Positions 2,298 through 16,820 are shown, numbered from the stretch's first letter. The stretch is 16,820 bases of DNA from Candidatus Nanohaloarchaea archaeon (GCA_042218325.1 JBDGRE010000035.1:1-16820), one strand, 5' to 3'. Translations and numbers: made by a program. The notes: generated by a model not told the origin, from the letters alone.

Positions 2298-3749
2298 TCA
2301 GGTTCCGAACTGCTCCAGGTCCTTCTGGACCGAATTAGCCTTCTCCAAGATCTGCTGTCTTGAGTGACGTGAGCTCAGGGACGCCTTGCGCCATACCTCG
2401 TCGTCTCTGAACGCGGAGTACGCCTGGGAGGCCTTGGAATCGAAGAAGTCGCGCGCCTTGCTGGCCTCCCGCTGGTAGTTCACTACCGGCTCGGGGTAGT
2501 CTCTACCTATAACGGTGCCTGTCTCCTCCTGCAGCTCCTCCGGCATCTTCCATGGTTCCGCCAGGAACTCTTCCGGTACGTCTTCCAGCTCAGGCACGTA
2601 CTTCCCGATGAATCTTCCCTCGGGATCGTTCTCCCTCACCTGCTTCACCGGGTCGTATATCCTGTTTGCATGCACTCCTACCAATCCGGACTGCATCTGC
2701 CACTGGTAGTAGTTTATCGCAACATCTGCATCGATAAGATGCTTGAAGAAGTGGTCAGCTCCTATCTTCCACCACTGCTTCAGTATGTAGCTGAAGAAAG
2801 AGGCGCACATGGCACGCATCCTGAAGTTGAGCCATCCCGTCTGCTTCAACGCCCTCATAGATGCATCGACCAGCGGATACCCTGTCTCTCCATTCTTCCA
2901 AGACTCCACGAGCTCGTCGTCCCTCTGGTGCCTGTGCAGGTCCCTGTAAACAGGGTTTATTGCTTCCTCGGGGAGCTCCGGGTTATCCTCTATCTTCTGA
3001 CGGAAGTGTTGGTGCCAGACAAGTCGCTCCTGGAACATCTCCACACCGCCGGGCGCGTCTTCCTTCCGGGTCTCAGCCCTCTGGTGAGCCTCCCTGGGCG
3101 ATATCGCTCCATGCCTCAGGTAGGGGGATAGATGTGAGGTGCCTGATTCAGCCCTATCAGGCGGTGAGATACAGCCCGGATACTGCTCGATATCCTCCAG
3201 GAAGGATTCTAGCCTCCGGCGTCCCGCCTTAGCTCCCCCTTCCCCGAAGCTTTCTTTCCCAGGTTTCCCTATCTTATCACGTATCTTGTGTAGCTCGATA
3301 CCTTCTCTCTCGAGTTCGGATAGCTCTTCAGGAGGCCGCAGCATCTCCGAACTGAAGTACTCATCCACCCTCTCTGACCAGTTCTGCCTTGAGTTCTTCC
3401 CCGGCCTCACTACGCCCTTTGGAACACTCATGAACCTCTTCCGAGCTTCCTTCTCCTGGTCTCGGTCGAGAACGTTCATGTCCTGAGAGAAGTAGATATC
3501 GTGTTCCAGATCTTCCAGTACCTCGAGCGGTTCTCCCTCGAGCACCGTCAGCGACGACCCCCTGGACCTGTATCTTCTATCGAGGTCCTCGAGGCACTCG
3601 AGTACGAACTTCTTCCTCGCGGGTGAAACCATCTCGCTGTCCCACCAGCCTTCGTCCACGACGTACACCGGTGCTGCTCCTTCTCCGGCTGCATCCAGCG
3701 CTCTGTTATCCATCAACCTGAGGTCGTTCCTGTGCCAGACAGCTTTCAC
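2298..3749 (-). CDS. cryptochrome/DNA photolyase family protein (antenna + FAD-binding domains), NFRMRAM-type
   Basis: WHRNDLRLMDN N-terminus, TSHLSPYLRHGAIS, WKNGETGYPLVDASMR, LIDAD..IN...WQ, RIYDPVKQ..DPEG.FI.KYVPEL; GTG start. Confidence 0.93.
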   Translation of the reverse strand: MKAVWHRNDLRLMDNRALDAAGEGAAPVYVVDEGWWDSEMVSPARKKFVLECLEDLDRRYRSRGSSLTVLEGEPLEVLEDLEHDIYFSQDMNVLDRDQEKEARKRFMSVPKGVVRPGKNSRQNWSERVDEYFSSEMLRPPEELSELEREGIELHKIRDKIGKPGKESFGEGGAKAGRRRLESFLEDIEQYPGCISPPDRAESGTSHLSPYLRHGAISPREAHQRAETRKEDAPGGVEMFQERLVWHQHFRQKIEDNPELPEEAINPVYRDLHRHQRDDELVESWKNGETGYPLVDASMRALKQTGWLNFRMRAMCASFFSYILKQWWKIGADHFFKHLIDADVAINYYQWQMQSGLVGVHANRIYDPVKQVRENDPEGRFIGKYVPELEDVPEEFLAEPWKMPEELQEETGTVIGRDYPEPVVNYQREASKARDFFDSKASQAYSAFRDDEVWRKASLSSRHSRQQILEKANSVQKDLEQFGT

Positions 3750-3767
3750 GGCCGAAAAGTTGAAACT

Positions 3768-3777
3768 GATTTATTTC
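3768..3777. promoter_or_regulatory. AT-rich box centred between the divergent photolyase and nitroreductase starts
   Basis: gatttatttc centred ~24 nt from both GTG 3749 (-) and ATG 3797 (+). Confidence 0.4.
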
Positions 3778-3796
3778 ATCGTTTCGATGGTAAGTT

Positions 3797-4399
3797 ATGG
3801 AGTTCACCAGACTACTCAGGGAAAGGAAATCGGTACACAGCTTCGATGATAGAGAAGTCTCCAGACAGAAGGTGGTCGATATCCTGGAGACCGCGAGGTT
3901 CGCGCCCTCCGCCTGGAACCTCCAACCATGGGAGGTGATAGTGCTTGATTCTGAGGATTCAAAAGCGGAGGCAGTAGCTTCGTCCTACGACCAGGCTTTC
4001 CTGTCGGATGCCGACAAGATCCTGGTCATAGCCGGGGATGAGAGATTCGATGAGCACCTGGACGAAGCACTGACGGACTCGGTCAGCAAGGGCTACATGA
4101 CTGAAGAGGAGGCCGCAAGTCACAGGAAGACAGTCGAGGAGTTCCGGGGCCGTCGATGGGAGTGGAAGGAGCTGGAGCTTACCGCTAACTGCATGTTCCT
4201 GGCATCGGCCGTTCTCAACGCGGCTCACGAGCGAGGCCTCGGTGCCTGTCCCGTGAAGGGCTTCGACCAGGAAGAACTGGCAGAGAGGCTTGGACTCCAG
4301 CAGCTATATCCCATTCTACTGATACCGATAGGCTATCCCGCTGAAGACCTTGAGAAGAAGTGGCGCAGGGAGCCCGAGGACCTGATTGAGTTCAGGTAG
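3797..4399 (+). CDS. nitroreductase family flavoprotein
   Basis: RKSVHSF, APSAWNLQPW, GLGACPVKGFD, LIPIGYP FMN-binding motifs. Confidence 0.93.
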   Translation: MEFTRLLRERKSVHSFDDREVSRQKVVDILETARFAPSAWNLQPWEVIVLDSEDSKAEAVASSYDQAFLSDADKILVIAGDERFDEHLDEALTDSVSKGYMTEEEAASHRKTVEEFRGRRWEWKELELTANCMFLASAVLNAAHERGLGACPVKGFDQEELAERLGLQQLYPILLIPIGYPAEDLEKKWRREPEDLIEFR

Positions 4400-5232
4400 T
4401 GGTCGTATCGACCTGAACGCAGGAGTCCGAGCCCCAGGACTGCAGCCAGGAAAGCCGGGAGTATGTTCCCGAAGTAGATGTTGACTGCTCCCCAGAGAAA
4501 TACGAAGCTGACGACATCATCCAGCATGAAGTCGATGCTCCGGAGTCTCTCGACCAGCTTGGACCTGTCAAATGCTAGCTCAAGAGCTCCTACAGCTACC
4601 GTTCCGGAGAGGAGCCAGCCCGCGAAGTTGGTCAACGGGACACCGTAGAACGCTCCGGACGCGTAGTCCCAGAAATCCAGAGAGACCGCCGCGGGATCGA
4701 GGACCAGGTCGAAGATGATGAGAGTCGCAAGGGAGGCAGGAAGCCTTTTATGTATCTGGCGAGACTTCTCGGGAGCCAGGAGCAGGACAAGAAGGTACGA
4801 GTTCACGACCAGAGGGATGAAGAAGATAGGCAGCGCGAGAGGTATGTTGCCCGGCAGCATAGGACCGAGGGAAACACCGTAGCGGAATTCTCCGTAGGGG
4901 AATCCTGTGGTAGTGCCGACGTACTCTATGATATAGCTGTAGATTGTTAGGAGAGACAGGTAGATCGCGGCTTTCCTGTCAACTAGCTCGCCTGTGCCGG
5001 CGATCAGGGGTAGGCGCATCACCAGCGTCCCGAAAAGGATGAGGTACGGGTTGAACGAGAGAACAGAAAGAGGAAGCGTTATACCGCGGATTACTGTATC
5101 GTTAAGGATGCCCTCGGCAGAGGCGAGAAGTGTCAGCGCTCCCACGATCGGGAAGATGACAGATATTGTGAAACGGTTCTCTGCAACAAGCTTCTTCAGG
5201 TCGAATTTCTTAAGTTTTTGAAGCCTCTCCAT
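4333..5232 (-). CDS. cruF: bisanhydrobacterioruberin hydratase (carotenoid 1,2-hydratase), membrane protein; start corrected to ATG 5232 (299 aa)
   Basis: ENRFTISVIFP, LMRLPL-like segment (VMRLPLIAG), EYVGTTTGFPYGEFRY, LGPM, DLVLDPAAV..FW.Y, YGVPLTNFAGW, MLDD.VSFV.LWG as in haloarchaeal CruF; the ORF-track extension to 5499 overlaps the opposite gene. Confidence 0.85.
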   Translation of the reverse strand: MERLQKLKKFDLKKLVAENRFTISVIFPIVGALTLLASAEGILNDTVIRGITLPLSVLSFNPYLILFGTLVMRLPLIAGTGELVDRKAAIYLSLLTIYSYIIEYVGTTTGFPYGEFRYGVSLGPMLPGNIPLALPIFFIPLVVNSYLLVLLLAPEKSRQIHKRLPASLATLIIFDLVLDPAAVSLDFWDYASGAFYGVPLTNFAGWLLSGTVAVGALELAFDRSKLVERLRSIDFMLDDVVSFVFLWGAVNIYFGNILPAFLAAVLGLGLLRSGRYDHYLNSIRSSGSLRHFFSRSSAG

Positions 5233-5244
5233 GATATGTTTAGT

Positions 5245-5607
5245 ATGCAGGAGCTTCTTGAACCTGTCGTGAATAACCCTTCCGTCCGGTACGTTGTAGA
5301 AAACCCCGATGTCGCGGCTGCAGGAGCAACCGCTGCCTACATTGCCGGATGGTCTCTCGCGGGACAGTACGGAGTCTTCAGGGGAGAGAAGAGAGAGGCG
5401 TCCAAAGAAGAGGAGAATCTTGAGCAACGTCGAGAAGAGCTGAAGTCGGATATAGAAAGAGAGTCTGCAGTCAGGGAATGCTTCAACCATCTCCTGCACC
5501 CGGTAAAGTCAGGTGAACTCAGCGAGCTGGAGGAGAGCTCTTACGTTCCCGACCGCGATGACTCCGAGTACCGTTTCTCCGATGAAGATCTTGAGCGCTT
5601 AGACTAG
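5245..5607 (+). CDS. hypothetical acidic protein (120 aa) with one Ala/Gly-rich hydrophobic segment and a coiled-coil-like stretch
   Basis: MQELLEP...VAAAGATAAYIAGWSLAG...KEEENLEQRREELKSDIERE; acidic composition typical of this genome; stop shares CTAG 5604-5607 with the convergent gene. Confidence 0.65.
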   Translation: MQELLEPVVNNPSVRYVVENPDVAAAGATAAYIAGWSLAGQYGVFRGEKREASKEEENLEQRREELKSDIERESAVRECFNHLLHPVKSGELSELEESSYVPDRDDSEYRFSDEDLERLD

Positions 5608-7013
5608 AGACCGAGGCTTTCTCGGAATTCTTCCGCGTTCTGCCGGTGTTCTTCCAGTGTATCATCCGACATCCTGTCGAGCTGCGACGCCATGAAGCTC
5701 ATCCTCTGGATATCCTCAATCTTGTCGCGATGGTCCTCTATGAAGCTCCAGTAGAGGCCGTCCCAGTAATCCTCCCATTCACCTGAGGGGTAGTGCGACA
5801 TCTTCCGGATGTAGTTGCTGCTGGAGATGTATGGCTTGGTCATCATGTTCTCCCAGCTGTACTGCGACATGCCGTAGACGTTCGGAACCATGACCCAGTC
5901 GTAGCTGTCGATGAACATCTCCGAGAACCATTCGTAGACTTCGTCCGGATCGACTTCAAGGAGGAGCATGACATTGCCGAGTACCATAAGACGCTCTATG
6001 TGGTGGCAGTAGCCATCTTCCAGTGCGTTCTCTATCGAGGTGTCTACGGGCGGAAGCCCTGTTCCCGCAGTATAGAACTCTTCGGGAAGCGGGTTGTCGC
6101 AGCCGAAGAAGTTCTCGTCTTGCATCTCAGGCTCCATCTCGTAGACTGCGCGGATGAACTCGCGCCAGCCGATGACCTGGCGCAGGAAGCCTTCCAGGGA
6201 GTTCATCGGGTAGTCCCTTCTCTCGTGGTACGCGAGCGTCTTTTCTACCACCTCTCCCGGTGTCAGGAGACCGATGTTGAGAGCTGGTGAAAGCAAGGAA
6301 TGGTAGCCATAGCGGAGGTCGCTGTCTATCGCGTCTTGGTAGTCACCGAAGTTTTCCAGCCGGTTCTCGAGAAAGTCCTCCAGGTTCTCAAGAGCCTGAT
6401 CCCTGGTAGTCGGCCAAGAGAAGTTCTCGAGCGAGCCCGGGTTGTCCGGGAAGTTTTTCTCAACGTATTTCTTTGCCTCCTCGACGTGTTCGGATGAGAA
6501 CTGGGGTATCTCTGGAGGCTGCTCGTCTTCCGGCATCTTTTCCCTGTTCTCCGGGTCGAAGCTCCATTTGCCTCCCTCCGGGTTCCCATCGTTATCGATG
6601 AGTATACCGTGGTGCTTCCTGACCTGCTTGTAGTACTCCAGGTGGAAGTAGTTCTGAGGCATCGCCTGGCTGTTGAACTCCATCGAGTTCATGAACATCG
6701 GAGACTCGACGAACTCCAGCTCCACATCTTTCTCATCCGCCAGACCTTCTATTTCGTCTCTCAGGGTGTGGTCCACAGGGTCGTACATCTTGATGTGCTC
6801 GTGTTGCTCGAATATGAACTCGAAGTCTTCATCGTGCTCTATGTACTCCGCACCGGTCTCTTCCTGGTAGGCTTTCATAGAGGCGCGGTGCAGCACCAGC
6901 TTCTGCCTGTGGAAACTTAGCCTTGAGAAGAAGTGAGGGTGCTCGACCAGGTACTTCTCCTCTTCATCGACCGGCTCCGGGAAAAGATGGTTGGGTAGGA
7001 TGATAGCTGCCAT
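5604..7013 (-). CDS. prokaryotic (6-4) photolyase-like protein (PhrB/CryB family) lacking the Fe-S cysteines
   Basis: ILPNHLF, FHRQKLVLHRASM, GGKWSFDPENR, FGDYQDA, HSLLSPALNIGLL, EGFLRQVIGWREF, YCHHIERLM, FIDSYDWVMVPNV, TKPYISSSNYI.KMSHY. Confidence 0.92.
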   Translation of the reverse strand: MAAIILPNHLFPEPVDEEEKYLVEHPHFFSRLSFHRQKLVLHRASMKAYQEETGAEYIEHDEDFEFIFEQHEHIKMYDPVDHTLRDEIEGLADEKDVELEFVESPMFMNSMEFNSQAMPQNYFHLEYYKQVRKHHGILIDNDGNPEGGKWSFDPENREKMPEDEQPPEIPQFSSEHVEEAKKYVEKNFPDNPGSLENFSWPTTRDQALENLEDFLENRLENFGDYQDAIDSDLRYGYHSLLSPALNIGLLTPGEVVEKTLAYHERRDYPMNSLEGFLRQVIGWREFIRAVYEMEPEMQDENFFGCDNPLPEEFYTAGTGLPPVDTSIENALEDGYCHHIERLMVLGNVMLLLEVDPDEVYEWFSEMFIDSYDWVMVPNVYGMSQYSWENMMTKPYISSSNYIRKMSHYPSGEWEDYWDGLYWSFIEDHRDKIEDIQRMSFMASQLDRMSDDTLEEHRQNAEEFRESLGL

Positions 7014-7017
7014 CTTC

Positions 7018-7710
7018 CTATATCGAAAGTGTTAGGGACTGCCTGATATCTTTTATCCTGCTCTCCCTGACTCCTCTCCTCCTGCCGAGCTCCTTCAGGG
7101 AGTAGTACACCAGTGTTCCCGTCAACCCCATCGACGCTATCCTCCTGCCGGAGGTTCTTACCAGCTTTTTCCGGATGACCCCTGAATCTCCCACCGACTC
7201 GATCGTGCTGGAGAACTCAAGATCCTCACCCAAGACGTCGCTGAATCCGCCCGATTCAAGGTAGTCACCAGTTTTAACTGCGACTGCGAATCCTGGAAGC
7301 AGCGGGGTCTGTCCCCGCATCAGAACCTGGTTGCAGATGAACTGCACCACCCTTGATCGCAAACCGGTCATCTCGAACTTTGCGGTGCATGCGGAAAGCT
7401 CTTTCTCCTCCATCATCTCGATAGCGGTAGAGGTGAAGGAAGGACGTAGCTCGGTGTCGGCATCGAGGAAAACTATGTAGTCTCCCGAGCTCTGGCGAGC
7501 TCCGGTGTCTCTCGCGTTGCCTCGGCCCTTCACACCTGTAACTACTTTATCCGCTACCTCCCTGGCATAGCTCAGGGTACCGTCGCTGCTTCCTCCATCG
7601 ACGACTATCAGTTCCTTATCGAACTCTCCCTCCTGGGATGAAACAGAGGATACGGCCGAGGGGAGGGTTTCCCTCTCATCCCTCGCTGGGATGACGAAGG
7701 ATACTTTCAA
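7018..7710 (-). CDS. glycosyltransferase family 2 (230 aa); start corrected to TTG 7710
   Basis: KVSFVIPARDE, IVVDGGSSDGT, FLDAD (DxD), GED, TSGRR; GGTGA SD-like motif just upstream, overlapping the rnj stop. Confidence 0.88.
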   Translation of the reverse strand: MKVSFVIPARDERETLPSAVSSVSSQEGEFDKELIVVDGGSSDGTLSYAREVADKVVTGVKGRGNARDTGARQSSGDYIVFLDADTELRPSFTSTAIEMMEEKELSACTAKFEMTGLRSRVVQFICNQVLMRGQTPLLPGFAVAVKTGDYLESGGFSDVLGEDLEFSSTIESVGDSGVIRKKLVRTSGRRIASMGLTGTLVYYSLKELGRRRGVRESRIKDIRQSLTLSI

Positions 7711-7714
7711 GCCA

Positions 7715-9028
7715 TCACCCGTCGATGTCGATTGTGCGGCCGTTCTCGCCGATGAAGACGTCCTCTTCCAGCGTGTAGCCCTCATTGCGGGCCAGCTCCA
7801 CGTAACTACCCAGCTTCTGGATGGTTCCGTGGGACGGGACGATGTTGTCAGGGTCCATGTAGCTGATGAAGTCCCTGTGATCCTCCTTGTGCGCGTGTCC
7901 CGTGGTGTGGATATCCATGTACATCCGGACTCCCTTCTGCCTCAGCTTCTTCTCGAGGCTGTAACGGTTGGCCTGTGTCAGCGGCGTCGGGATAGTACGG
8001 GAAGAAAAGATGACGTGGTCTCTCCTGCCGAGGTTGAAAGGATACTCTCCGGATGCGAGCTTGTCCAGCTGCGCCCCGGGCTCACCTTGGTTGCCCGTGG
8101 CGACGATGAGCCAGTCCTCCTTGTTGTTGTCGACCTTGTTCATCAGCTCCTCCACCTCGTTATAGTAGGAGACGACCTCGACGTCGGAAAGGTCGATAAG
8201 GTCGAGCTCTGCCGCGGCCTCCGTGTACTCACGGAGACTTCTACCGACGAACGCAACTTTGCGTCTACCGTCGTTCGCGTCCAGCAGCGAGTTCAGCCGG
8301 GAGATCTGCGAGGAGAACGTCGTGACGACGACTGCGCCTCCTGCCTCGTAGCAGGAGTTCAGCACGTCCCGCAGCTCCACCTCGACAGACTCCTCGGAGC
8401 GCGCCCTTCCAGGCTCGTCGACCCGTGTGGTCCCGGGTATCATCAGCTTGACGCCTTCCTCACCGGCCCGCTTGAGCCTCTCGATGTCAGTCGTTTCCTC
8501 TATGACAGGCGAGTAGTCGATCTTCATGTCGTTGCCGTAGACCACGTTGCCATCGTCCGTTTTCAGGAAGCTGAGCGTCGCCTGCGGGATGGAGTGGTTG
8601 ACGTGCATGAATTCGACGGACATCGAGTCCGTGACCTCATACTCCTCACCTTTCTCTACCGCGATAAGGTCGTTGTCGATGTTCTTCCTGTCGTCCTCGA
8701 GGATGTTCTCCACGACCTTCCTGGTGAAAGGACTGCAGAGGATCGGTGCGTCGTAGGCTCCCGCGAGCTTGGGGATGGCGCCGACGTGGTCGAGGTGACC
8801 GTGCCCGATAACTATAGCTTTTACATCTTTGTCCATGATTTGTTCGTCAAGAGGAATCGCGCCTGTTTCAAGGGCGTCGTTCGTGGTCATCTCGTTGATC
8901 TCTCCTTCTGCGTTGATGACCTCCTCCATCTCGAATCCCATGTCGAATATGACCGTACCTTCATCTACCTCGACCGCGGTCATGTTACGGCCGACCTCTT
9001 CATAACCTCCTAAAGTGTGTACTTTCAT
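7715..9028 (-). CDS. rnj: archaeal ribonuclease J (beta-CASP metallo-beta-lactamase)
   Basis: GGYEEVGRNMT, HGHLDHVGA (HxHxDH), HSIP, TFSSQISR, TGNQGEP, HTTGHA, PSHG. Confidence 0.93.
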   Translation of the reverse strand: MKVHTLGGYEEVGRNMTAVEVDEGTVIFDMGFEMEEVINAEGEINEMTTNDALETGAIPLDEQIMDKDVKAIVIGHGHLDHVGAIPKLAGAYDAPILCSPFTRKVVENILEDDRKNIDNDLIAVEKGEEYEVTDSMSVEFMHVNHSIPQATLSFLKTDDGNVVYGNDMKIDYSPVIEETTDIERLKRAGEEGVKLMIPGTTRVDEPGRARSEESVEVELRDVLNSCYEAGGAVVVTTFSSQISRLNSLLDANDGRRKVAFVGRSLREYTEAAAELDLIDLSDVEVVSYYNEVEELMNKVDNNKEDWLIVATGNQGEPGAQLDKLASGEYPFNLGRRDHVIFSSRTIPTPLTQANRYSLEKKLRQKGVRMYMDIHTTGHAHKEDHRDFISYMDPDNIVPSHGTIQKLGSYVELARNEGYTLEEDVFIGENGRTIDIDG

Positions 9029-9108
9029 TCGTTTATCACGTTGAATATAAACCGGATAGAACCCAAGCTTTTAAAGGGAGGTCGGGGATTCAGGTCAATA
9101 ATTCCGGG

Positions 9109-10581
9109 CTATTTCATGCACATTACTCCGATATCCGCCGTGTCGCTCGTTACACGGGTCGTGGCGGTCTGTACACACATGACATGCCGGTTGTTGTCAG
9201 GCGCGCCGTCAACGCAGTGCGCCATGTTACTACCCGCCATGTCGTAGCTGTAATTTGTTATGCCCTGGAGAGACCTCTTGTAATCCGCGTCACCAAGAGC
9301 GGTTACTGAACAGAACGCGTTAGTGTTTCCTCCCCAGCTAAGTCTTGCGGCTTCTTGAGGAATCGTGATACCCATCTCGAAAAATTCACCTCCCTCGTTA
9401 TGTATACAAGTGTAATTCCCGCCGTTAGTACAGTCCGTATTACCTGCGGACGGCTTAGAAAGACCACCTTCACTTATACCACCTGATGTGTAGTATTTCC
9501 CGGAGTCATCAGGGTCTATCCCTGCCCACGCCATAGGCCGGTCCGAGTTCGCCCAGTCCACGTTCTTGACGCTGTTGCCACTCAAATCAAGGTTTGCATT
9601 TTTTACCGTCACAGGTCCTCCCTCGTTCGCCTGTAGAAGTCTTGGGTTACCTGACCGGGAGCTGTCGTAAATACTTACAGCGCTGGAACCCGAACCCGAA
9701 GTGTAGAGACGCAGATCCCCGCTTCCAGACGTGCCTGCCTGTATAGCGTTGGCGTCAGTTATTGAGTTGCCGTTCATCCGGAGACGGCTGCTCCTCAACT
9801 CCACCGGCCCTCCCCTGTTGACCCTGAAACGCTGGGTCCAGCTCCCGCCTCCACTGTCGGTCCAGACTGCGACGTCACCGGATTCGCTTGTGATAACAGG
9901 GCTGTAAGATGAACCTCTCAGCTCTACCTGGGGTTTATCACCGTGCTCCCCCACCATGATATCCGTAGCAGGACCGCGATAGGCAGAGGTACCAGACTTT
10001 ATGATACCGGTGCTGGAGAGATTCGCGTCAACACCAACATCTCCAGTAGGCCTGAGGACGATGTCCGTAGGCGAACCGGATGACGTTTCAAGATACATCG
10101 TGGAGTAAGACTCGATAGTGTTTGTATCAGTACCTGTAAGCTCGATACCGTTTTCGACCGCCAGAGGGCCGGAAGACTGGACACTAAGTGGCTGGTGCAT
10201 CCTTATCTGGCTTGTCGTGAACTCCGAGATCATCGTACCGGAGCCAGTTTCGGTAACGTTAAGCTCGCCGACTCCTTTTATGGTGTTCCCGTTCATGTTT
10301 ATCCTGCTGTTGCGGAAATCCCACTCGCTGTTCCCGGTATCCCACTCAAGGATATAGACGTTGCCTGGATCCTGGACAGAGGTGCCTCCGAACTGGAGAC
10401 CGTTCTGTAGCCGGAGCTCTGAGACGCTGAAGATATCCTGTCCGGTGACGTTCAGGTCCGCCACCATCTCGTCCATCGGGTGAATCTCCGAGAGATTATG
10501 CGACTGTTCCGGCTGCGCAGCGGCGGTTAGACCCAGGAACAGAAGGATTACTAGAGACGCAGTAAGCTTAGACAGCTTCAC
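9109..10581 (-). CDS. secreted fibre-like surface protein A (490 aa); start corrected to GTG 10581
   Basis: Signal peptide MKLSKLTASLVILLFLGLTAAA-Q; four [LI]-x-[MLV]-x-G-[NQ]-x-[IV] shaft motifs; Cys-rich C-terminal domain; TTTAAA box at 10609-10604. Confidence 0.8.
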   Translation of the reverse strand: MKLSKLTASLVILLFLGLTAAAQPEQSHNLSEIHPMDEMVADLNVTGQDIFSVSELRLQNGLQFGGTSVQDPGNVYILEWDTGNSEWDFRNSRINMNGNTIKGVGELNVTETGSGTMISEFTTSQIRMHQPLSVQSSGPLAVENGIELTGTDTNTIESYSTMYLETSSGSPTDIVLRPTGDVGVDANLSSTGIIKSGTSAYRGPATDIMVGEHGDKPQVELRGSSYSPVITSESGDVAVWTDSGGGSWTQRFRVNRGGPVELRSSRLRMNGNSITDANAIQAGTSGSGDLRLYTSGSGSSAVSIYDSSRSGNPRLLQANEGGPVTVKNANLDLSGNSVKNVDWANSDRPMAWAGIDPDDSGKYYTSGGISEGGLSKPSAGNTDCTNGGNYTCIHNEGGEFFEMGITIPQEAARLSWGGNTNAFCSVTALGDADYKRSLQGITNYSYDMAGSNMAHCVDGAPDNNRHVMCVQTATTRVTSDTADIGVMCMK

Positions 10582-10602
10582 ATCGCAAGTATCTTCTTCT
10601 TT

Positions 10603-10610
10603 GTTTAAAC
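10603..10610 (-). promoter_or_regulatory. TATA box, leaderless transcript of fibre protein A
   Basis: GTTTAAAC 22-29 nt upstream of GTG 10581. Confidence 0.55.
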
Positions 10611-10624
10611 CGTTGCCGGGAGTA

Positions 10625-13600
10625 CTATCCAACGCTGACACCTCCACCGTTCATGACCTGCTTCACCTGGTTCTGGTTCAGAGCGTATGGATAAATCCGT
10701 ATGTCATCTATCTTTCCAGCGTACCAGTCGTTACCGTTGAACTTGTCCATCCCTACTGAGACCTGCTGAATCTGCTGTAGATCGCCGCTCTTGGATTTGC
10801 CCCCCTGCAGTTCGCCATTGACATACGCCTTCATCTCTGCACCATCATAAACTAGGGTCACGTGCTGCCATTCACCTGTTTTCATATCATATCCAGTATC
10901 CCACGTGGCGGTTGAGCCTCCCGAGCTAAGGCGGAAGTGAAGGCTGGAGTCCCTTCCCTTGATATAGCTCATGAAGCCGTCTCCTTTCTCTACGATCCAT
11001 TGGCGGTTATCTCCGCTAATCTGGGACGGCTTCAGCCATGCAGAAACCGTTATCTTTTGGCCGAACGGGCCTTGCAGGGGATTAACGTCCAAGTAATCGT
11101 CATTCCCATCGAACTTCAGAGCCTTGCCATGCCGACCCGAAACCCATCTAGGATCTCCTACCATGTCAGCCTCGTTCCCTTCACCGCTGGAGTCAGTCAG
11201 GTTCATACCTTTGCCTTCTCGGGCGAAGAAGTAGGTGGCCTTGAACTCTACAGTTGATCCGTATCCATGGTCATAACCGCTGCATCTCCAGCATCCTGTA
11301 TCGCCGTTACCGCTCTGCACCCCGAAAGCTGTAGGTATACCGTTCGTCATTATCGTCCGCCATGAGCCTGAAATCGTCTGCGTGCTTCCGCTGTTTCCTC
11401 CACCGCATACGACGTGGCTTGTATCCGATGCCGGGTTGCCCATAGTGGGAAACACATTCACCGAGTTGCCGCTGGGCCCGGAGTTTGCGTAAGGAGTCAC
11501 CGGCTCCCTGCCGCCATCACAGTTGTTGTCCGCATCCTGGAAACGGAAGGAGCTGTTGTAAACTGTACGATTTATCCGTTCGGCAAACTTTTGCACCTGC
11601 CTATCCGAGATGCTGCTGCCTCTCTCGTCCGAAAGATTGAGGTCATAGAGCGCACTGTTCGACCCGTAATGCTCAGCGAAGTCCTGGTCGCAGTCAGGGT
11701 CCAAATCGAGCACCGCGCTCGAAGACCATTTGCCTTTCCACTTTGAGCTTTCACACGCAACAAATCCGAATCCGGTCCTGTGATCCTCGGTGAACCATAA
11801 CTTTGTCCAGCCCCCACCTTGAGTCTTCATATCACAGAAAACTTTGAACGCATCCTGTGGCTCTCCGGAGTAACCCGTAATCCAGTACTTCCCGCTTCCC
11901 GCTCCCGGCCTCAGGTTACTGATTCTTAGGCAAGAAGCCGCAGGGTTCTCCTTTGTTCCCACCTTACCAGCGTCCAGCTTCCAGTGGGCAGCCGGTCCTG
12001 GCATCTCTCCCCGGCCAGGATTTTTAGCCTGAGTATATAGCTCCCATACCTCTGCGCTTGAGAGGGAACGGTTGTAGAGACGGGCTTGATCTATCTTCCC
12101 TCCAAAGAACTCGTTGGGTGCAGGACGCGAACCTATCGTCCACGGAGAACCTGTCGAGGCGGTACCTATGTTCGAGTTAGTTCCCATAAGTTTTCCGTTC
12201 TTGTAGAAACGAGCCTGACCGTTGACTATATCCCACACTACTACTAGATGCTGCCACCGGTTTTTGTCGACAGGAACACCTGTCTGCCAGACGTTAGAGC
12301 TACCTATCCCAATATGGTACTCACCTTCATTTCTCCCGTGCCCCAAGAGCCAGTCCCATCCGCCGTTGTCAGCAGTTCCGATACTCCGTTTGTTCGAATC
12401 GATCTTAGTCGGGTAGACCCAGACAGAGAAGGTCAGCGGGGTGTCGGAGTCCATCTCGGGCCGGAAAGAACTAGAAACGTAGTCATCGGAGGCATCGAAC
12501 TCGAGGCAGCTACCTTTTACACATGAAGCACTCAATCTGGCACGAGGACCGTTCACCAGCTCACCATGGTTTCCTGCTCCGCTCTCATCTACCGCGATCT
12601 CGCCGTTCATGCCGCTCGGACAGCTGATGGTATCGCTCTGGCCGCATGTTTCGACGCGGTCGAGCGACTGGTAGAGGACAAGCTCATTCCGTAAATCGTT
12701 TCCACTGCCGCTGTTAAGCCTGCTGACTCCACGGGCGTACTGTTCTTTGACTTCCTGAGATGAGAGCGCATGCTGGAACAGAGTTACATCGTCTATCTTG
12801 CCGTTAAAGGCGTGGTTGGTGTCTCCGCTCCAGCCGTCGCCGTAAGGATAGAGCGTGCCGACAGTGAAGTCGAGGTTGTCATCGCCGTGGTCGAGCGGCA
12901 CCCATCTATCTATAGAATGGGTCTTGGTTCCTACAAGCTCTCCGTCCAGGTATAGAATTAATTTACCGGAGTCAAGCACGCCGACGGCGTGGTGCCACCC
13001 GCTGGAAACCGGGGAACTCTGTATCGTCTTGGTCGTTTCGTTACCCTGAATTCTCAGCGTGATAGAGTCGTCAGAATTGGAGTCTATTCTATAGTTGTAA
13101 TCTCCCATCCCGTTCCAAGGTTTGGAGACTATGCTGCCGCTGTTGCTGTCATCCCGGCTGTAGAACCAGGCCTCGATTGTCTTCCCGCCGCCGGTGTACT
13201 CCAGTTCTTTCGAGTCTGGTACTTCCACCCTGTCGTCAAGTCCATCAAAGTCCAGCGCGCTACCTCGCGTGCTCTCGGTCCAGTTGGGGCCGTCCACGGC
13301 GTTCGGCTCCAGCCTTCCATCGTTACCGTAGGAAGAAGTATCGTGAGCATAGTCTCCGCCGCTTTCCGAGAACCTCAGGTCAACCGCTGCGCCCTTAGAC
13401 TCCAGGCCCTGAGTCTTCTCGATTATTTCACTTGGTTTCAGAGCGTCCTTGTATATCTTGACCTGATCCAGTTTCATTTCGATGGAACCATAGTTCGGGG
13501 ACTGGCCCAGGTAAAGAGACTGACTGTTTGTACTTAGAGGCCCACAAACAGGCGCTGATGAGTCTAGCTGACCGTTTACGTAAACTTTCAGCTTGTTCGA

Positions 13601-14851
13601 GGCGTTGTTATAGACCCCGGCTAAATGGTACCATTTACCAACATCAAAAGCGGTATTTGTCTTGTCAATTCCGTCATTGTTATTATTGCAATTCCTCACC
13701 CGCCAGTGAATGGTATTTGTTCCATCCCCCTGAAACCAGAGACCCGGCGTTCGGGAACCACCGTCCCCCTTGACGAGCAATTGATCCCAACTGGAGCTAG
13801 ACGGTTCCTTCATCTTCATCCAGAACTGTACAGTGTGGTTATCTGTCAAATCAAGACTCCGGTCATCATCCGCTGTTATCCGACCGCTATCAGCCTTAAA
13901 TTCATAACACCGCCCTACCTTACACCCTAACGCCGACTGCTGGATAGCCCCACTATTAGGCTTTCCATGGTTCTTGTTGCCTGAGGTGTCGAAGACGTGG
14001 GTGCTGTTCTTCTCTGTGAAAGAGACGTCAAGTACTTTGTCCGGACTGGAGGTTCCCTGTCCGTCGCTGATCTTGTAGGAACCCTGATTGTACAAGGATT
14101 TGACCTGTGTTCTATTCAAATCTTCAGAGAATATCTTGACCTGGTCTATCGTTCCGTTGAATTCCGTACCCGACTTTATGCTTCCTGGGTAGGAACTGGA
14201 TTCGGTTCCCGCACCTATGTGCATGTAGCGGGTCGCACCGGAACCGAAGCCGTTAGAGGAGGCACTGGAAGTTACTTCGAGCTCCCCGTTTATGTACAGC
14301 CTGATCTCCCCCGATGGGTCGTAAACACCAACGATATGTCTCCATTCTCCTTTTTCGAGGATTGTAGAAGAGTATATATTACTGCCAGCTGCGGTCCATC
14401 TTATATCGTGGCCTCCATCGTTACCGCCGTTGTCTTCTATCAGGCACCAGTATTCCGAACAGTCGGTAGCGGCCAGTCTCGGCCAGCTGTCCGGAGAGCT
14501 TCCCTGCCTCTTCGCCCAGAGGGAGACAGTAAGACCTTTTGAGTACTCTGAACTTCCGTCATCCTTGTATGGGGTGTCCACCCAGTCTCCATCGGCGTAG
14601 AACCGTAGTGCGCTACCAGTTCTTCCCCGGCTCCATCTAGCTCCGTTCACGATTCCATCTTTAGAGCCTGCTGAATCCGCTACTATGCCTCCCGCGCCCT
14701 CATCGAACCGGTACTCCGCCCCAAGATTGTCGGAGCCGTCCGCGTCCAGGACTTCTGAGGCGCCGATGAAGCCCAAGGAGAGAACCACAAGTGTGACAAG
14801 TGCCGAGGCGAACAGGGTTTTTCTCTCTACGAGGTCTGTTTTGCGGCTCAT
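10625..14851 (-). CDS. large surface protein: N-terminal signal/TM, five LamG (ConA-like) domains, fibrinogen-like domain nested in the fifth
   Basis: Five repeats of [YW]xFD/E...DxSG..NxG...ALxFDG...WxHxxxVY...lYxNG...FxGxIDxVxIY...L; FCDMKTQGGGWT fibrinogen-like motif; hydrophobic N-terminus TLFASALVTLVVLSLGFIGA. Confidence 0.9.
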   Translation of the reverse strand: MSRKTDLVERKTLFASALVTLVVLSLGFIGASEVLDADGSDNLGAEYRFDEGAGGIVADSAGSKDGIVNGARWSRGRTGSALRFYADGDWVDTPYKDDGSSEYSKGLTVSLWAKRQGSSPDSWPRLAATDCSEYWCLIEDNGGNDGGHDIRWTAAGSNIYSSTILEKGEWRHIVGVYDPSGEIRLYINGELEVTSSASSNGFGSGATRYMHIGAGTESSSYPGSIKSGTEFNGTIDQVKIFSEDLNRTQVKSLYNQGSYKISDGQGTSSPDKVLDVSFTEKNSTHVFDTSGNKNHGKPNSGAIQQSALGCKVGRCYEFKADSGRITADDDRSLDLTDNHTVQFWMKMKEPSSSSWDQLLVKGDGGSRTPGLWFQGDGTNTIHWRVRNCNNNNDGIDKTNTAFDVGKWYHLAGVYNNASNKLKVYVNGQLDSSAPVCGPLSTNSQSLYLGQSPNYGSIEMKLDQVKIYKDALKPSEIIEKTQGLESKGAAVDLRFSESGGDYAHDTSSYGNDGRLEPNAVDGPNWTESTRGSALDFDGLDDRVEVPDSKELEYTGGGKTIEAWFYSRDDSNSGSIVSKPWNGMGDYNYRIDSNSDDSITLRIQGNETTKTIQSSPVSSGWHHAVGVLDSGKLILYLDGELVGTKTHSIDRWVPLDHGDDNLDFTVGTLYPYGDGWSGDTNHAFNGKIDDVTLFQHALSSQEVKEQYARGVSRLNSGSGNDLRNELVLYQSLDRVETCGQSDTISCPSGMNGEIAVDESGAGNHGELVNGPRARLSASCVKGSCLEFDASDDYVSSSFRPEMDSDTPLTFSVWVYPTKIDSNKRSIGTADNGGWDWLLGHGRNEGEYHIGIGSSNVWQTGVPVDKNRWQHLVVVWDIVNGQARFYKNGKLMGTNSNIGTASTGSPWTIGSRPAPNEFFGGKIDQARLYNRSLSSAEVWELYTQAKNPGRGEMPGPAAHWKLDAGKVGTKENPAASCLRISNLRPGAGSGKYWITGYSGEPQDAFKVFCDMKTQGGGWTKLWFTEDHRTGFGFVACESSKWKGKWSSSAVLDLDPDCDQDFAEHYGSNSALYDLNLSDERGSSISDRQVQKFAERINRTVYNSSFRFQDADNNCDGGREPVTPYANSGPSGNSVNVFPTMGNPASDTSHVVCGGGNSGSTQTISGSWRTIMTNGIPTAFGVQSGNGDTGCWRCSGYDHGYGSTVEFKATYFFAREGKGMNLTDSSGEGNEADMVGDPRWVSGRHGKALKFDGNDDYLDVNPLQGPFGQKITVSAWLKPSQISGDNRQWIVEKGDGFMSYIKGRDSSLHFRLSSGGSTATWDTGYDMKTGEWQHVTLVYDGAEMKAYVNGELQGGKSKSGDLQQIQQVSVGMDKFNGNDWYAGKIDDIRIYPYALNQNQVKQVMNGGGVSVG

Positions 14852-14944
14852 CTAGTTCACTGCGGGATATAGAAGGTTCTTTCCGTCCACGTTATAGACA
14901 TTCCCGCGGCCGTGTTTAAAGTTGCTTGAAAGCCGCGGTGAAGG

Positions 14945-14950
14945 TTTTAA
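14945..14950 (+). promoter_or_regulatory. TATA box, leaderless transcript
   Basis: TTTTAA at -29 to -24 from ATG 14974. Confidence 0.55.
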
Positions 14951-14973
14951 CCGAGCATCAGGAATACCAAGGT

Positions 14974-15879
14974 ATGTCGCCGAGGAAAATCCTGCTGGCT
15001 GCGCTGGTTCTTATGGTGCCGGCGGTCTCGGGCGCGCCCAGCTTCTCCGTAAAGCAGAGCTGCGATTCGGGCGAGGAGCCGCTGTTCTCGATGTACTCGA
15101 GGAGCGGGGGTAACGTCGCGAAGCCGGGCTACTACAAGTGGCAGGTCTGCGGGGAAGAGGTCGAGAACAGCGCGATAAGGACCAGTTGCAAGGAGGACGA
15201 GCGCAGGGTTATCTCGATGAAGACGAAGACCGATTCGCACGCCTCGGTGTACGACACCTACCACTGGAAGGTCTGCGCGACCGACGTCAACCCCTCCGTG
15301 GCGCAGAGCTGCAGCGAGAACCCTATCGTCTCGCTCTATTCCAAGGACGACTCTCACGCGGCCGAGCCCGGCTACTTCAAATGGCAGGTGTGCCCTCAGA
15401 CCCGGAAACCGCCGGAGAACGTGACGCTGCAGATGAAGATGGACGCGTCGAACGTATATGTCTCGGGCGACCCGGCACAGGAGAAAACCTACAACCCCTT
15501 GGAGCTGGACTACCCCTACATCGCGTCCGACCAGACCACCGGGATAGTCAGCTACGGCTCGCTCGTCAGCCTCGAATACGAGCAGAAGTCACGCGACGTC
15601 TTCCGTGTCACGCAGGACTCCGGCAGCTTCCTCATCCCTAACACCGGCGGCGGTTACCAGGAGATCGAGGACGACCAGGAACAGGTAGTCAACCGGCGTT
15701 TCCTGAACCTGCTTGAGCCCAGCTTCCACTACACCATACCGGAGAAACCTGTCGTCAAGGTCTACATGGACATGGAGGACCCTGTGAAAGGCTTCACCGG
15801 CACCGAAACCGGCAGCATCGAGATAGCGGTCCGCAACACGCTCGACAATGAAACACTGGTGGAGTTCAGGACGGGATAG
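14974..15879 (+). CDS. secreted protein (301 aa) with three Cys-bracketed repeats; start corrected to ATG 14974
   Basis: Signal peptide MSPRKILLAALVLMVPAVSG-A; repeats C..SM/SL....[GS][NH][VA].....Y.W.VC x3. Confidence 0.82.
   Translation: MSPRKILLAALVLMVPAVSGAPSFSVKQSCDSGEEPLFSMYSRSGGNVAKPGYYKWQVCGEEVENSAIRTSCKEDERRVISMKTKTDSHASVYDTYHWKVCATDVNPSVAQSCSENPIVSLYSKDDSHAAEPGYFKWQVCPQTRKPPENVTLQMKMDASNVYVSGDPAQEKTYNPLELDYPYIASDQTTGIVSYGSLVSLEYEQKSRDVFRVTQDSGSFLIPNTGGGYQEIEDDQEQVVNRRFLNLLEPSFHYTIPEKPVVKVYMDMEDPVKGFTGTETGSIEIAVRNTLDNETLVEFRTG
15061..15393 (+). repeat. three intragenic ~30-aa repeats at ~42-aa period
   Basis: CDSGEEPLFSMYSRSGGNVAKPGYYKWQVC (15061-15150); CKEDERRVISMKTKTDSHASVYDTYHWKVC (15187-15276); CSENPIVSLYSKDDSHAAEPGYFKWQVC (15310-15393). 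Confidence 0.85.
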
Positions 15880-16820
15880 TTAAGGCATCGGATTCGTAGG
15901 TATCAGCTGATAACCTGTTCCCAAGTCGTGGTAACCCTTACCCATCACATACATGTGCGTCTCCCGCAGGTGGACAGTAGCACCCTCCCCGTCATAATAT
16001 CCTGAAGCATATCCGAAAACCGTAACCTTATCCACTGCAGCCCCGTTAGGGATATCGATATTTGACCATGAAAAACTGGAAGCAATTGTACAGGTTTCAT
16101 AGCCATCGTCTGAGACGCTCAATGAAGGATATGCGTGATACTTGCCATTGTTAACAGTTTGAACCGTAACATTTTCTACTCTTCCTGAACCTTCCTGACC
16201 TCCCGATGCACAAGTGTTGCTCACGCCCACATATATACGGGAGTCATCGAACAAGTACTCTCCTCCCTTCGCAAAATTAGCGGTAACCTTAATGTAACCG
16301 CTGCACTGAAAACATCTGATAGAGTCGCTTATACCATCGCCAGTGTTCCCGTTCCACCAAGATACGGAGTTATCCGGGTTCGATTTCACCTCCCTGTGTG
16401 ACTGAGAAGTAACCTTACTGTCCACATAACCCTTCGTGGCCGCGTCATTGGCCGAGTTGGGAGATGACAACCCTGTTATCTGGTGGGAGTTCATGTCAAG
16501 ACCGTTTCCGGGACCTGTCCACCTTATCCACCCGTCGTTGTAATCTCTTATCGCGGCATCGTCCGAAATCCACAGACCGCCCCCATTTACATTCGGCTTG
16601 TTAGCGTAAAGCAACCCGTTCGACGTATCGTATATCAACTTCCCGTTATTGTTCTTCAAAGCCTCGATATCAGTAACATTGTTACCACTCAGGTCGATGC
16701 TATTGCTTCCGGCGCCGTTACCGCGTGAAAGCACATCGCTCAGGGCCTGATTATCCGGTACGACATCGTCGCTGGTATCTACGTAGCTCTTGGTGGTGGC
16801 GTCCTGGGCCTCTACCGGGT
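15880..16820 (-). CDS. fibre-like protein B, 5'-truncated by the window edge (tail-fibre/trimeric adhesin-like)
   Basis: Frame stays open to the window end: PVEAQDATTKSYVDTSDDVVPDNQALSDVLSRGN...; two DAxTKxYVD motifs; IDLSGNNVTDI and LDMNSHQITGL shaft motifs. Confidence 0.8.
   Translation of the reverse strand, partial: PVEAQDATTKSYVDTSDDVVPDNQALSDVLSRGNGAGSNSIDLSGNNVTDIEALKNNNGKLIYDTSNGLLYANKPNVNGGGLWISDDAAIRDYNDGWIRWTGPGNGLDMNSHQITGLSSPNSANDAATKGYVDSKVTSQSHREVKSNPDNSVSWWNGNTGDGISDSIRCFQCSGYIKVTANFAKGGEYLFDDSRIYVGVSNTCASGGQEGSGRVENVTVQTVNNGKYHAYPSLSVSDDGYETCTIASSFSWSNIDIPNGAAVDKVTVFGYASGYYDGEGATVHLRETHMYVMGKGYHDLGTGYQLIPTNPMP

Follow-up and report, generated by a model that had tools for sequence, protein, structure and literature searches.

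The locus described here raises the question of how a nanohaloarchaeal symbiont recognises and holds its host cell. The stretch of DNA that was analysed (the window) is the 16,820-nucleotide contig JBDGRE010000035.1:1-16820 of Candidatus Nanohaloarchaea archaeon (GCA_042218325.1). It is the whole of contig C29 in the parent genome (G000), which has 1.07 Mb in 35 contigs and is 96% complete. From position 9109 to the contig end, the window carries four consecutive open reading frames (ORFs), all predicted to be secreted, in the order fibA, LamG protein, Cys3, and fibB. A preliminary description of this DNA had read them as exported fibres with interchangeable tips and lectin-type proteins used to recognise host S-layer glycans. 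We propose that window 9109-16820 is probably one copy of a chromosomal, Nanohaloarchaea-specific surface cassette, in which mosaic trimeric fibres and a lectin would serve to grip host cells. The structural and evolutionary parts of the earlier interpretation are partly supported, by the cellular context of the locus, the mosaicism of the family, and the trimer model of fibB.

The cassette would work in the following manner. Its core would be a divergent gene pair, with the gene of the triple-Cys-repeat protein Cys3 on one side and one or more fibre genes on the other side. Each fibre would possess a Sec-type signal peptide and then a conserved N module of ~100 amino acids (aa). The N module would anchor the fibre on the symbiont's side, either on its own envelope or on a pilus-like structure. 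Cys3 might mediate this docking, a role that is considered because of its steady pairing with N-module genes. Beyond the N module, an intertwined homotrimeric shaft of phage-tail-fibre-like units (L-x-M-N-G-N-x-I ... D-A-x-x-K-x-Y-V-D) would be followed by a variable tip. A large multivalent lectin with five LamG domains and a fibrinogen-like domain would be co-encoded, and the tips and lectin domains would bind surface molecules of the haloarchaeal host. The repertoire would diversify through module shuffling among paralogues and across lineages. Host S-layer glycans may be suggested as the ligand from the general sugar-binding habit of LamG and fibrinogen-like domains.

The four modules of the fibres (N, M, R, and tip) are all found in fibA (9109..10581, minus strand), a mosaic, predicted secreted fibre. 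Its ORF is open to 10647, and alignment with relatives indicates the GTG at 10581 as the likeliest start, which gives a protein of 490 aa. The signal peptide and N module (H-x-L-S-x-I-x-P-x-D...DLN; 10243..10581, minus strand) are the hallmark of the family. In the alignment of 12 proteins that defines them, H28, S31, P35, and D37 are invariant, and signal peptides are carried by fibA and the 11 relatives in this alignment. The M module (ORF aa 107-237; 9937..10329, minus strand) shares 56-61% identity with internal parts of far longer fibres, and its matches are located on contig C2 of the same genome (75652-75933), in a 1118-aa fibre of G001 (at 1012-1112), and in a 1692-aa fibre of G015. 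The R region (9412..9894, minus strand) carries repeated shaft motifs, L-x-M-N-G-N-x-I-x-D, at aa 289 and 353. The C-terminal Cys-rich tip (9112..9654, minus strand) matches the C-termini of five other proteins. The giant fibre of C2 matches fibA in two distant parts, which correspond to fibA aa 24-125 and aa 120-219 at 53-56% identity. No match to fibA was identified in Pfam, PHROG, or NCBIfam, and sequence searches of the PDB with fibA, the N-module profile, the Cys3 profile, and both C2 fibre ORFs returned nothing below E 0.1.

The exhaustive HMMER search of 1,835,955,588 representatives identified 86 relatives of fibA at E<=0.001. A domain map was made by placing the matches of 87 stored proteins onto fibA. 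In this map, all four modules occur together in fibA only. The N module is always N-terminal (residues ~2-116 in 40/40 carriers), the M module occurs at varied positions (for example residues 901-982 of 1002 and 1170-1357 of 1692), R units are repeated in tandem in further members of the family, and the tip is C-terminal. A profile of the N module, built from the window genome's own taxonomic family alone, has matches in 32 of the 70 genomes of the class, with up to 6 per genome, and those that begin at the profile start are always at the protein N-terminus. Many N-module proteins are only 64-200 aa long; proteins of 110-200 aa with the module alone include G017:C11:38222-38566, P0049, P0069, and P0077. 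Additional fibre ORFs of the parent genome are located on C2, C35, and C10, in most cases at contig ends. The sequences thus support the paralogous fibre family with swappable tips that had been proposed, in the form of a conserved N module after the signal peptide, exchangeable distal parts, and exchangeable tips.

The tip is shared beyond the archaea. It matches the C-termini of P0024, P0026, P0040, P0037, and P0064 with E-values of 6e-38 to 1e-11, and the tip (46-48% identity) thereby ends proteins whose N-terminal parts are unrelated. P0026 and P0040 are chromosomal proteins, in a metagenome-assembled genome of Bradymonadaceae and on a 6.87-Mb contig of Myxococcota, and the fibA tip is 41-46% identical to the C-termini of the proteins from these two genomes. 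The neighbours of the tip gene in the Bradymonadaceae genome encode a Ser/Thr kinase, a dehydrogenase, a ChrR-type cupin, and a sigma factor. Bradymonadaceae and Myxococcota are predatory lineages.

The second fibre, fibB (15880..16818, minus strand), is convergent with Cys3 and is cut by the contig end, so that its 5' end is open and the C-terminal 312 aa are present. These comprise a shaft (aa 1-136; 16411-16818, minus strand) and an orphan tip (aa 140-312; 15883-16401, minus strand), for which no relative was found among proteins of 171-546 aa, the length range covered by the word-seeded search. Pairwise BLASTP of fibA and fibB shows no similarity (best E 0.41), which agrees with the earlier statement that the two tips are unrelated. 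The fibB segment of aa 1-51 matches the part of the C2 giant fibre that directly precedes the match of fibA aa 120-219. The motif D-A-x-T-K-x-Y-V-D is present twice in fibB. The aa 105-142 region matches eight PHROG families, six of which are tail or tail-fibre families, with a best E-value of 3.1e-9 over a short motif only. The scores for fibB in the ESM Atlas are all below 0.9 and serve as leads only.

A shaft motif common to both fibres had been noted, together with a proposal to count it in the genome and to predict homotrimers. The strict motif occurs 15 times in 814,492 aa of six-frame ORFs of at least 100 aa, and all occurrences are within five fibre ORFs. The pattern was derived from fibA and fibB, so their 5 matches are circular; the remaining 10 are independent and are located in three other fibre ORFs. 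The model of three fibB copies forms an intertwined trimer with an interface that spans residues 1-136, and its score is 0.72 compared with 0.00 for the best of 3 controls. The mark of 0.72 is reached by 21 of 30 proteins solved as one-chain pairs and by none of 23 proteins solved as single chains. The fibB runs share at least 71% of contacts, with a partner pLDDT of at least 48. The shaft of fibB is therefore predicted as a trimer, at low pLDDT.

A leucine-rich-repeat fold was considered for fibB and rejected. In the PDB sequence search, fibB is matched best by a leucine-rich-repeat protein of designed origin (whole-protein E 5e-5, with an i-Evalue above 1 for each single stretch), and the match falls on the single unit L-D-L-S-G-N-N-V-T-D-I. 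This match is read as motif likeness only because the units are isolated rather than tandem. The single shaft unit at aa 37-48 (window 16675-16710), I-D-L-S-G-N-N-V-T-D-I-E-A-L-K, resembles an internalin-type leucine-rich repeat.

The LamG protein (10625..14851, minus strand) consists of 1408 aa with an N-terminal hydrophobic anchor or signal. The Laminin_G_3 profile matches it with 402.2 bits against a cut-off of 27.6 in five stretches, and the LamG domains are located at aa 73-262, 308-487, 524-713, 775-945, and 1236-1408. A Cys-rich fibrinogen-like (GGGWT) domain of ~265 aa (aa 960-1225; 11177-11974, minus strand) is located between the fourth and fifth LamG domains. It is matched by NF040941 GGGWT_bact with 51 bits against a cut-off of 30 and by COLFI with 34.5 against 26.2, the latter over profile positions 24-70 of 233 only. 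Pfam Fibrinogen_C scores 20.7, under its cut-off of 22, and the sequence is recognisable for the N-terminal part of the domain only. The five-LamG and fibrinogen-like architecture that had been described is thus recovered by Laminin_G_3 and GGGWT_bact above their cut-offs, with Fibrinogen_C just below. Assignment to the TafC family of fimbrial proteins (NCBIfam NF052521) was rejected; its 168.5 bits are below the cut-off of 410, and the profile matches stretches of LamG type. The matching loci of G001 and G015 encode proteins of 1397-1560 aa that resemble orthologues of the 1408-aa lectin, with 31-34% identity to it.

Cys3 (14974..15879, plus strand) is a predicted secreted protein of 301 aa. 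Its ORF is open from 14926, and the ATG at 14974 is the likely start by alignment. Its three Cys/His repeats (aa 20-144) are followed by a beta-sandwich (aa 144-247) and then by a C-terminal part. The repeats are ~40 aa each, with one invariant Cys pair per repeat and two invariant His. The invariant residues in 24 Cys3 sequences are C30, C59, C72, C101, C113, C140, H89, and H128, which is in line with the triple-Cys-repeat protein noted earlier. Cys3 has 19 relatives, and both of the organism-named ones are from Candidatus Nanohaloarchaea archaeon. The AlphaFold2 model has a pLDDT above 90 over residues 20-140, and the C-terminal part is poorly modelled. The C-terminal half (profile positions about 144-302) also stands alone in proteins of ~180-212 aa (for example G031:C6:28324-28842 and G031:C6:15634-16152) and, in another family of the order, forms part of giant ORFs (4177-4225 aa). 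In the literature search, the Cys-repeat partner and the N module were found described nowhere; the supplements of the papers, which were outside that search, may annotate them.

The pairing of Cys3 with the fibres is a further line of evidence for the cassette. A divergent N-module gene is located within 5 kb of 29 of the 43 full-length Cys3 genes. In the family of the window genome the pairing is 27/31, and two of the four misses are at contig ends. Among the 70 genomes, Cys3 is present in 37; both are present in 28, the N module only in 4 (all weak matches), Cys3 only in 9, and neither in 29. The genomes are kin and not independent, so these co-occurrence counts are a description and not a test. 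Two classes of gap between Cys3 and the fibre gene were identified, one of about 80-120 bp and the other of about 700-1400 bp. In the latter class, the gap holds the gene of a small membrane protein, and a series of pilin-like genes begins with Cys3. The window is an outlier with a gap of 4.4 kb because the LamG gene sits between Cys3 and fibA. The intergenic region between the LamG and fibA genes and the divergent Cys3 (14852..14973; 122 bp by gene coordinates) is presumed to be a shared promoter region. In G065 (C2:36405-38110), two pairs of Cys3 and a short N-module gene are arranged in tandem, which would fit duplication of the whole pair.

The same build, with Cys3 divergent from a fibre, LamG proteins of 1400-1560 aa, and more fibres, is present in G001, G015, G011, and G017. 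The matching loci are flanked by cellular genes, both in the single-contig genomes G001, G015, and G011 and in G017. The RNase J gene rnj, which adjoins the locus in the window, is ~5-40 kb from fibre or Cys3 genes in G001, G017, G015, and G011. The identity to the same-genus genome G001 is 85% for rnj, 75% for GluRS, 35% for Cys3, and 31% for the LamG protein, and the fibres match module by module only. The genes between rnj and Cys3 also differ between the window genome and G001. These comparisons point to fast evolution of the locus within the genus.

Export and surface display are inferred from N-terminal hydrophobic segments. Each complete protein (fibA, LamG protein, and Cys3) has a single such segment and no further one. 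The sequon density of the locus proteins is at the 80th-94th percentile of 625 ORFs, which lends mild support to an extracellular location.

The fibres, Cys3, and the LamG proteins might instead be accessory adhesins of a type IV pilus-like filament, displayed on it and not independently on the cell envelope, and the window copy would then be a satellite of the C2 pilin locus. On C2 and in G001, G015, G011, and G017, Cys3 is the first gene of a pilin-like run and the fibre gene is divergent from that run. The pilin-like N-termini in these runs are K-G-Q-x-I-N-I-D-W, K-G-F-x-Y-T-L-E-A, and S-K-G-V-S-Q. One pilin-like protein matches DUF7289 with 37.6 bits against a cut-off of 27, and another protein of the run, of 1060 aa, has FG-GAP repeats and LamG. 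In G012 and on C11 of G017, the Cys3/fibre pair is beside an archaellum/pilus-type operon, as annotated by eye. Type IV pilus loci with viral-attachment-like proteins have been described in nanohaloarchaea (PMC11291902). However, no pilin gene adjoins the window copy or the other short-gap pairs (80-120 bp). A class III signal motif of the K/R-G-Q type was recognised by eye in the neighbours of the C2 paralogue and in none of the four window proteins. Display on a pilus is therefore considered rather unlikely for this locus. The proteins could also form or decorate the symbiont's own envelope and vary under selection by viruses or grazers, with no part in host recognition. Their predicted secretion, repetitive build, and fast evolution would fit such a coat, as would their patchy presence across genera and the raised sequon density. 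We regard it as improbable, given that the tip is common to fibre-like proteins of other cell-attacking lineages, that LamG, fibrinogen-like, and YadA_head repeats are adhesion-type modules, and that separate S-layer proteins have been reported in cultured nanohaloarchaea in the passages on their surface genes (PMC10266531).

The fibres could belong to a provirus or viral remnant, as tail fibres of an integrated archaeal tailed virus past the contig end. The PHROG tail and tail-fibre matches of fibB, the contig end within fibB, and the presence of one terminase-like ORF and an integrase in a low-GC stretch of contig C30 are on the side of this explanation. Signal peptides on fibA and 11 of its relatives speak against it, as does the retention of this locus type between cellular genes in single-contig genomes. 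The preliminary description had reported no capsid, terminase, or integrase gene in view, and none is present among the window ORFs, where the six other ORFs and rnj are all cellular. Head, packaging, and integrase families are also lacking among the families listed for 68 ORFs of the matching loci in four relatives, a scan whose Pfam part lists 25 of 42 families. The families listed are tail-fibre-like, 'virion structural', LamG, WD40, DUF7289, TatC, and YadA_head. Phage_capsid has no match in the 96%-complete genome, and C30 has neither a capsid match nor a fibre-family match at E<=1e-6. A viral origin of the locus is thus very improbable, and its reading as chromosomal and non-viral is retained. 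The variable C-termini might also be toxins with immunity genes, or targets of a diversity-generating retroelement. Contact-dependent toxins are likewise built from a conserved N-terminus and variable C-termini. The toxin reading was rejected because there is no room for an immunity gene, with rnj 80 bp after fibA and fibB abutting the end of Cys3; in addition, the fibA tip is a putative Cys-rich beta domain with no toxin-family match. The retroelement reading was rejected with neither a match to RVT_1 (reverse transcriptase) in the genome nor a template-like repeat of either tip. We consider both hardly credible.

Several observations weigh against the host-gripping cassette itself. The N module is absent by its profile in 38 of the 70 genomes, including the single-contig genomes G002, G007, G018, and G058, so host attachment does not universally depend on this system. 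In the two remaining families of the order, the N module is near only 2 of 12 Cys3 genes, which may be a sensitivity limit of a profile built from one family. The signal peptides were judged by hydrophobicity and alignment rather than by a dedicated predictor. Cys3 has no membrane anchor and would be unable to tie a fibre to the cell alone. Its best structural match, the Cys/His-rich (resistin-like) C-terminal domain of PCSK9 (VIA-align Z 6.6 over 113 aa, root-mean-square deviation 3.1), and its likeness to the N-terminal sandwiches of GH31 enzymes (Z 5-6.4) are within the background, for which the best Z is typically 7-8. Foldseek against the PDB identified nothing for Cys3 at E<=0.001 (best E 0.24 or higher), and the ESM Atlas gave no usable match by features and TM values of at most 0.40 by structure. 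The AlphaFold2 model of the fibA tip is weak (pLDDT 64), and no known fold was identified for it in the wide VIA search (best Z 4.7) or in BFVD (best E 3e-3, TM at most 0.3); it may be described as a Cys-rich beta domain without a nameable fold. The fibB trimer model has low fold confidence (pLDDT about 50), and its tip part is not confidently placed. The calibration of the 0.72 mark is based on two copies and not three, and the result may reflect the tool's memory of, or a likeness to, solved phage fibres.

A more specific form of the proposed cassette may be considered, although we hold it as doubtful. Cys3 and the N module could be a conserved socket and plug, where the three Cys/His repeats of a single Cys3 molecule would make up a pseudo-threefold platform for a homotrimeric fibre, which would fit into it by its N-terminal end. 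Where the locus includes pilin genes, the socket would be at the tip of the type IV pilus-like filament. The same socket could then accept any N-module fibre, whatever its shaft or tip. If this were true, a symbiont with a tiny genome would possess an exchangeable system of host recognition, and its tips would be traded even with predatory bacteria.

The closest working model for the cassette is the mosaic adhesive trimer (MAT) family of Bdellovibrio bacteriovorus, by likeness of build and not by shown homology. The MAT proteins, in the passages describing them, combine a signal peptide and a conserved N domain (~130 aa) with beta-prisms that are trimeric and with tips that are swapped, and the fibres have been shown on the predator surface, binding prey glycans (PMC10769870). 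Both systems are chromosomal multigene families in cells that attack other cells. Both possess a signal peptide, a conserved N-terminal domain (beta-rich in MAT) that is thought to sit on the surface of the producer, phage-tail-fibre-like, intertwined trimeric shafts (predicted here from the fibB model), and exchanged C-terminal tips, and an interplay with type IV pili has been raised as possible for both. The MAT-type architecture is present here in the signal peptide, the N-terminal domain common to paralogues, and the variable tips. The nanohaloarchaeal family differs in that it is archaeal and is accompanied by the conserved Cys3 partner and LamG lectins, and the S74 chaperone/protease domain was not seen in its fibres in the Pfam scan. 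When fibA, fibB, and the C2 fibre were compared with the PDB by sequence, no MAT structure was matched.

The locus is also comparable to gene clusters already described in nanohaloarchaea. LamG lectins are reported to be common to all nanohaloarchaea in the part of the source consulted (10.1101/794461). The SVXNc operon of Ca. Nanohalococcus occultus has been presented as a set of candidate host-recognition genes, with three LamG genes, a 1,693-aa protein resembling trimeric autotransporter adhesins, and a 1,386-aa protein (PMC10266531). Both that operon and the present locus type are nanohaloarchaeal, and in each a long adhesin-like fibre adjoins proteins that have as many as five LamG domains. 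The make-up of the SVXNc operon is mirrored by the G015 locus, which encodes three LamG proteins together with a fibre of 1692 aa and a further protein of 1391 aa. With one LamG protein and two short fibres, the window copy is small in comparison. The N module, the Cys3 partner, the module shuffling, and the tip family do not appear in the passages on the SVXNc operon (PMC10266531). For nanohaloarchaea, as part of the cluster 2 DPANN, conserved type IV pilus loci are described that neighbour GatE and NTPase genes and include viral-attachment-like coiled-coil proteins, and the C2 locus likewise adjoins GatE, P-loop NTPase, and FlaF/PilA-like pilin genes, as in Locus 1 of that account (PMC11291902). 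The window copy has no pilin genes, and the passages concerned stress coiled-coil proteins and not the fibre, Cys3, and LamG set. We therefore regard the locus as a variant of the already described LamG/adhesin operons; its N module, Cys3 partner, module map, and predator-shared tip were not found in print. The published loci of cultured nanohaloarchaea were absent from the preliminary description, as were the further fibre loci (C2, C35, and C10), the link to pilin-like operons, and the partner role of Cys3.

Two bacterial and viral fibre types share parts of this build. The tail fibres and receptor-binding proteins of tailed phages have in common with it the short shaft/collar motif in PHROG tail-fibre families, a trimeric shaft (modelled here), and modular tips. 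In contrast to those fibres, the present ones have signal peptides and a chromosomal cellular context without baseplate or tail genes. The YadA-family trimeric autotransporter adhesins share the trimeric fibre logic and the YadA_head repeats, of which 17 stretches (248 bits) occur in the 2722-aa giant fibre of a relative. The nanohaloarchaeal fibres differ from them in that there is no outer membrane and YadA_anchor is absent in fibA, fibB, and the 2722-aa relative; fibA and fibB have no YadA match of any kind.

The candidate genes for host recognition and holding in DPANN archaea are mostly listed by domain name only. The locus offers a concrete set, namely a small, lineage-restricted fibre family with a candidate docking module, a conserved partner gene, a multivalent lectin, and a tip that also occurs in cell-attacking bacteria. 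If the host range is set by the tips and lectin domains, comparison of strains should predict which haloarchaea each nanohaloarchaeon can use, and the MAT parallel would mean that archaeal symbionts and bacterial predators have arrived at the same solution.

The remaining observations concern the surroundings of the fibre loci. A 1409-aa ORF within C35:1-7025 has a C-terminal tip that by eye resembles a diverged fibA tip. The N-terminus of a fibre on the same contig (6530-7024) stops in the middle of a shaft motif, and the right end of the window starts in the next part of that motif. The two ends have no overlap of at least 15 nt, and a join between C35 and the window contig is a guess. Among the sequencing runs, X2 and X3 give identical short pieces only and X1 breaks at the same point, near 16795. 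The region C10:1-3355 carries a fibre C-terminus, a HEPN/nucleotidyltransferase pair, TatC, and a third copy of Cys3.

The membrane protein encoded between Cys3 and the fibre gene at the pilin-type loci is conserved and of ~200 aa (L024:11326-11958, C2 69650-70282), with counterparts in G001, G015, and G011. Its assignment as a redox enzyme was rejected; it has a faint thioredoxin match (E 0.049, C-terminal half) and no CxxC motif. In G001, a membrane-anchored DsbA-like protein with a Thioredoxin_4 domain (L012:4202-5119; 3.5e-19) is encoded directly beside rnj, between rnj and secreted Cys-rich proteins. It could provide dedicated disulphide formation for these extracellular proteins, and no counterpart was seen in the window.

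The first 25 kb of contig C30 (1-25000) in the parent genome form a low-GC island, with 0.41-0.50 compared with 0.55-0.59 for the remaining contig. The island carries the only terminase-like ORF of the genome (16551-18107), an integrase (23641-24915), two very large ORFs (7301-14664), and ORFs that by eye resemble a DNA methyltransferase and ParB. It may be an integrated element or a defence island.

The housekeeping neighbour and landmark of the locus, rnj (7715..9028, minus strand), encodes RNase J with the Pfam domains RNase_J_b_CASP (1.1e-20), Lactamase_B, and RMMBL. These domains and the ORF calls agree with the earlier description of four consecutive, predicted secreted surface proteins beside rnj. 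A 440-aa ORF exactly antisense to rnj (7691-9013, plus strand) is Arg/Val/Asp-rich and, being unsupported, is read as a shadow ORF of the GC-rich coding strand. The left half of the window encodes the housekeeping GluRS, a photolyase, a nitroreductase, a carotenoid synthesis protein, a photolyase-related protein, a GT2 protein, and RNase J. Within it, positions 2298-7013 form a light-related cluster in a reduced genome, which consists of a class I-type photolyase, the photolyase-related DPRP protein, the Caroten_synth protein, and the nitroreductase.

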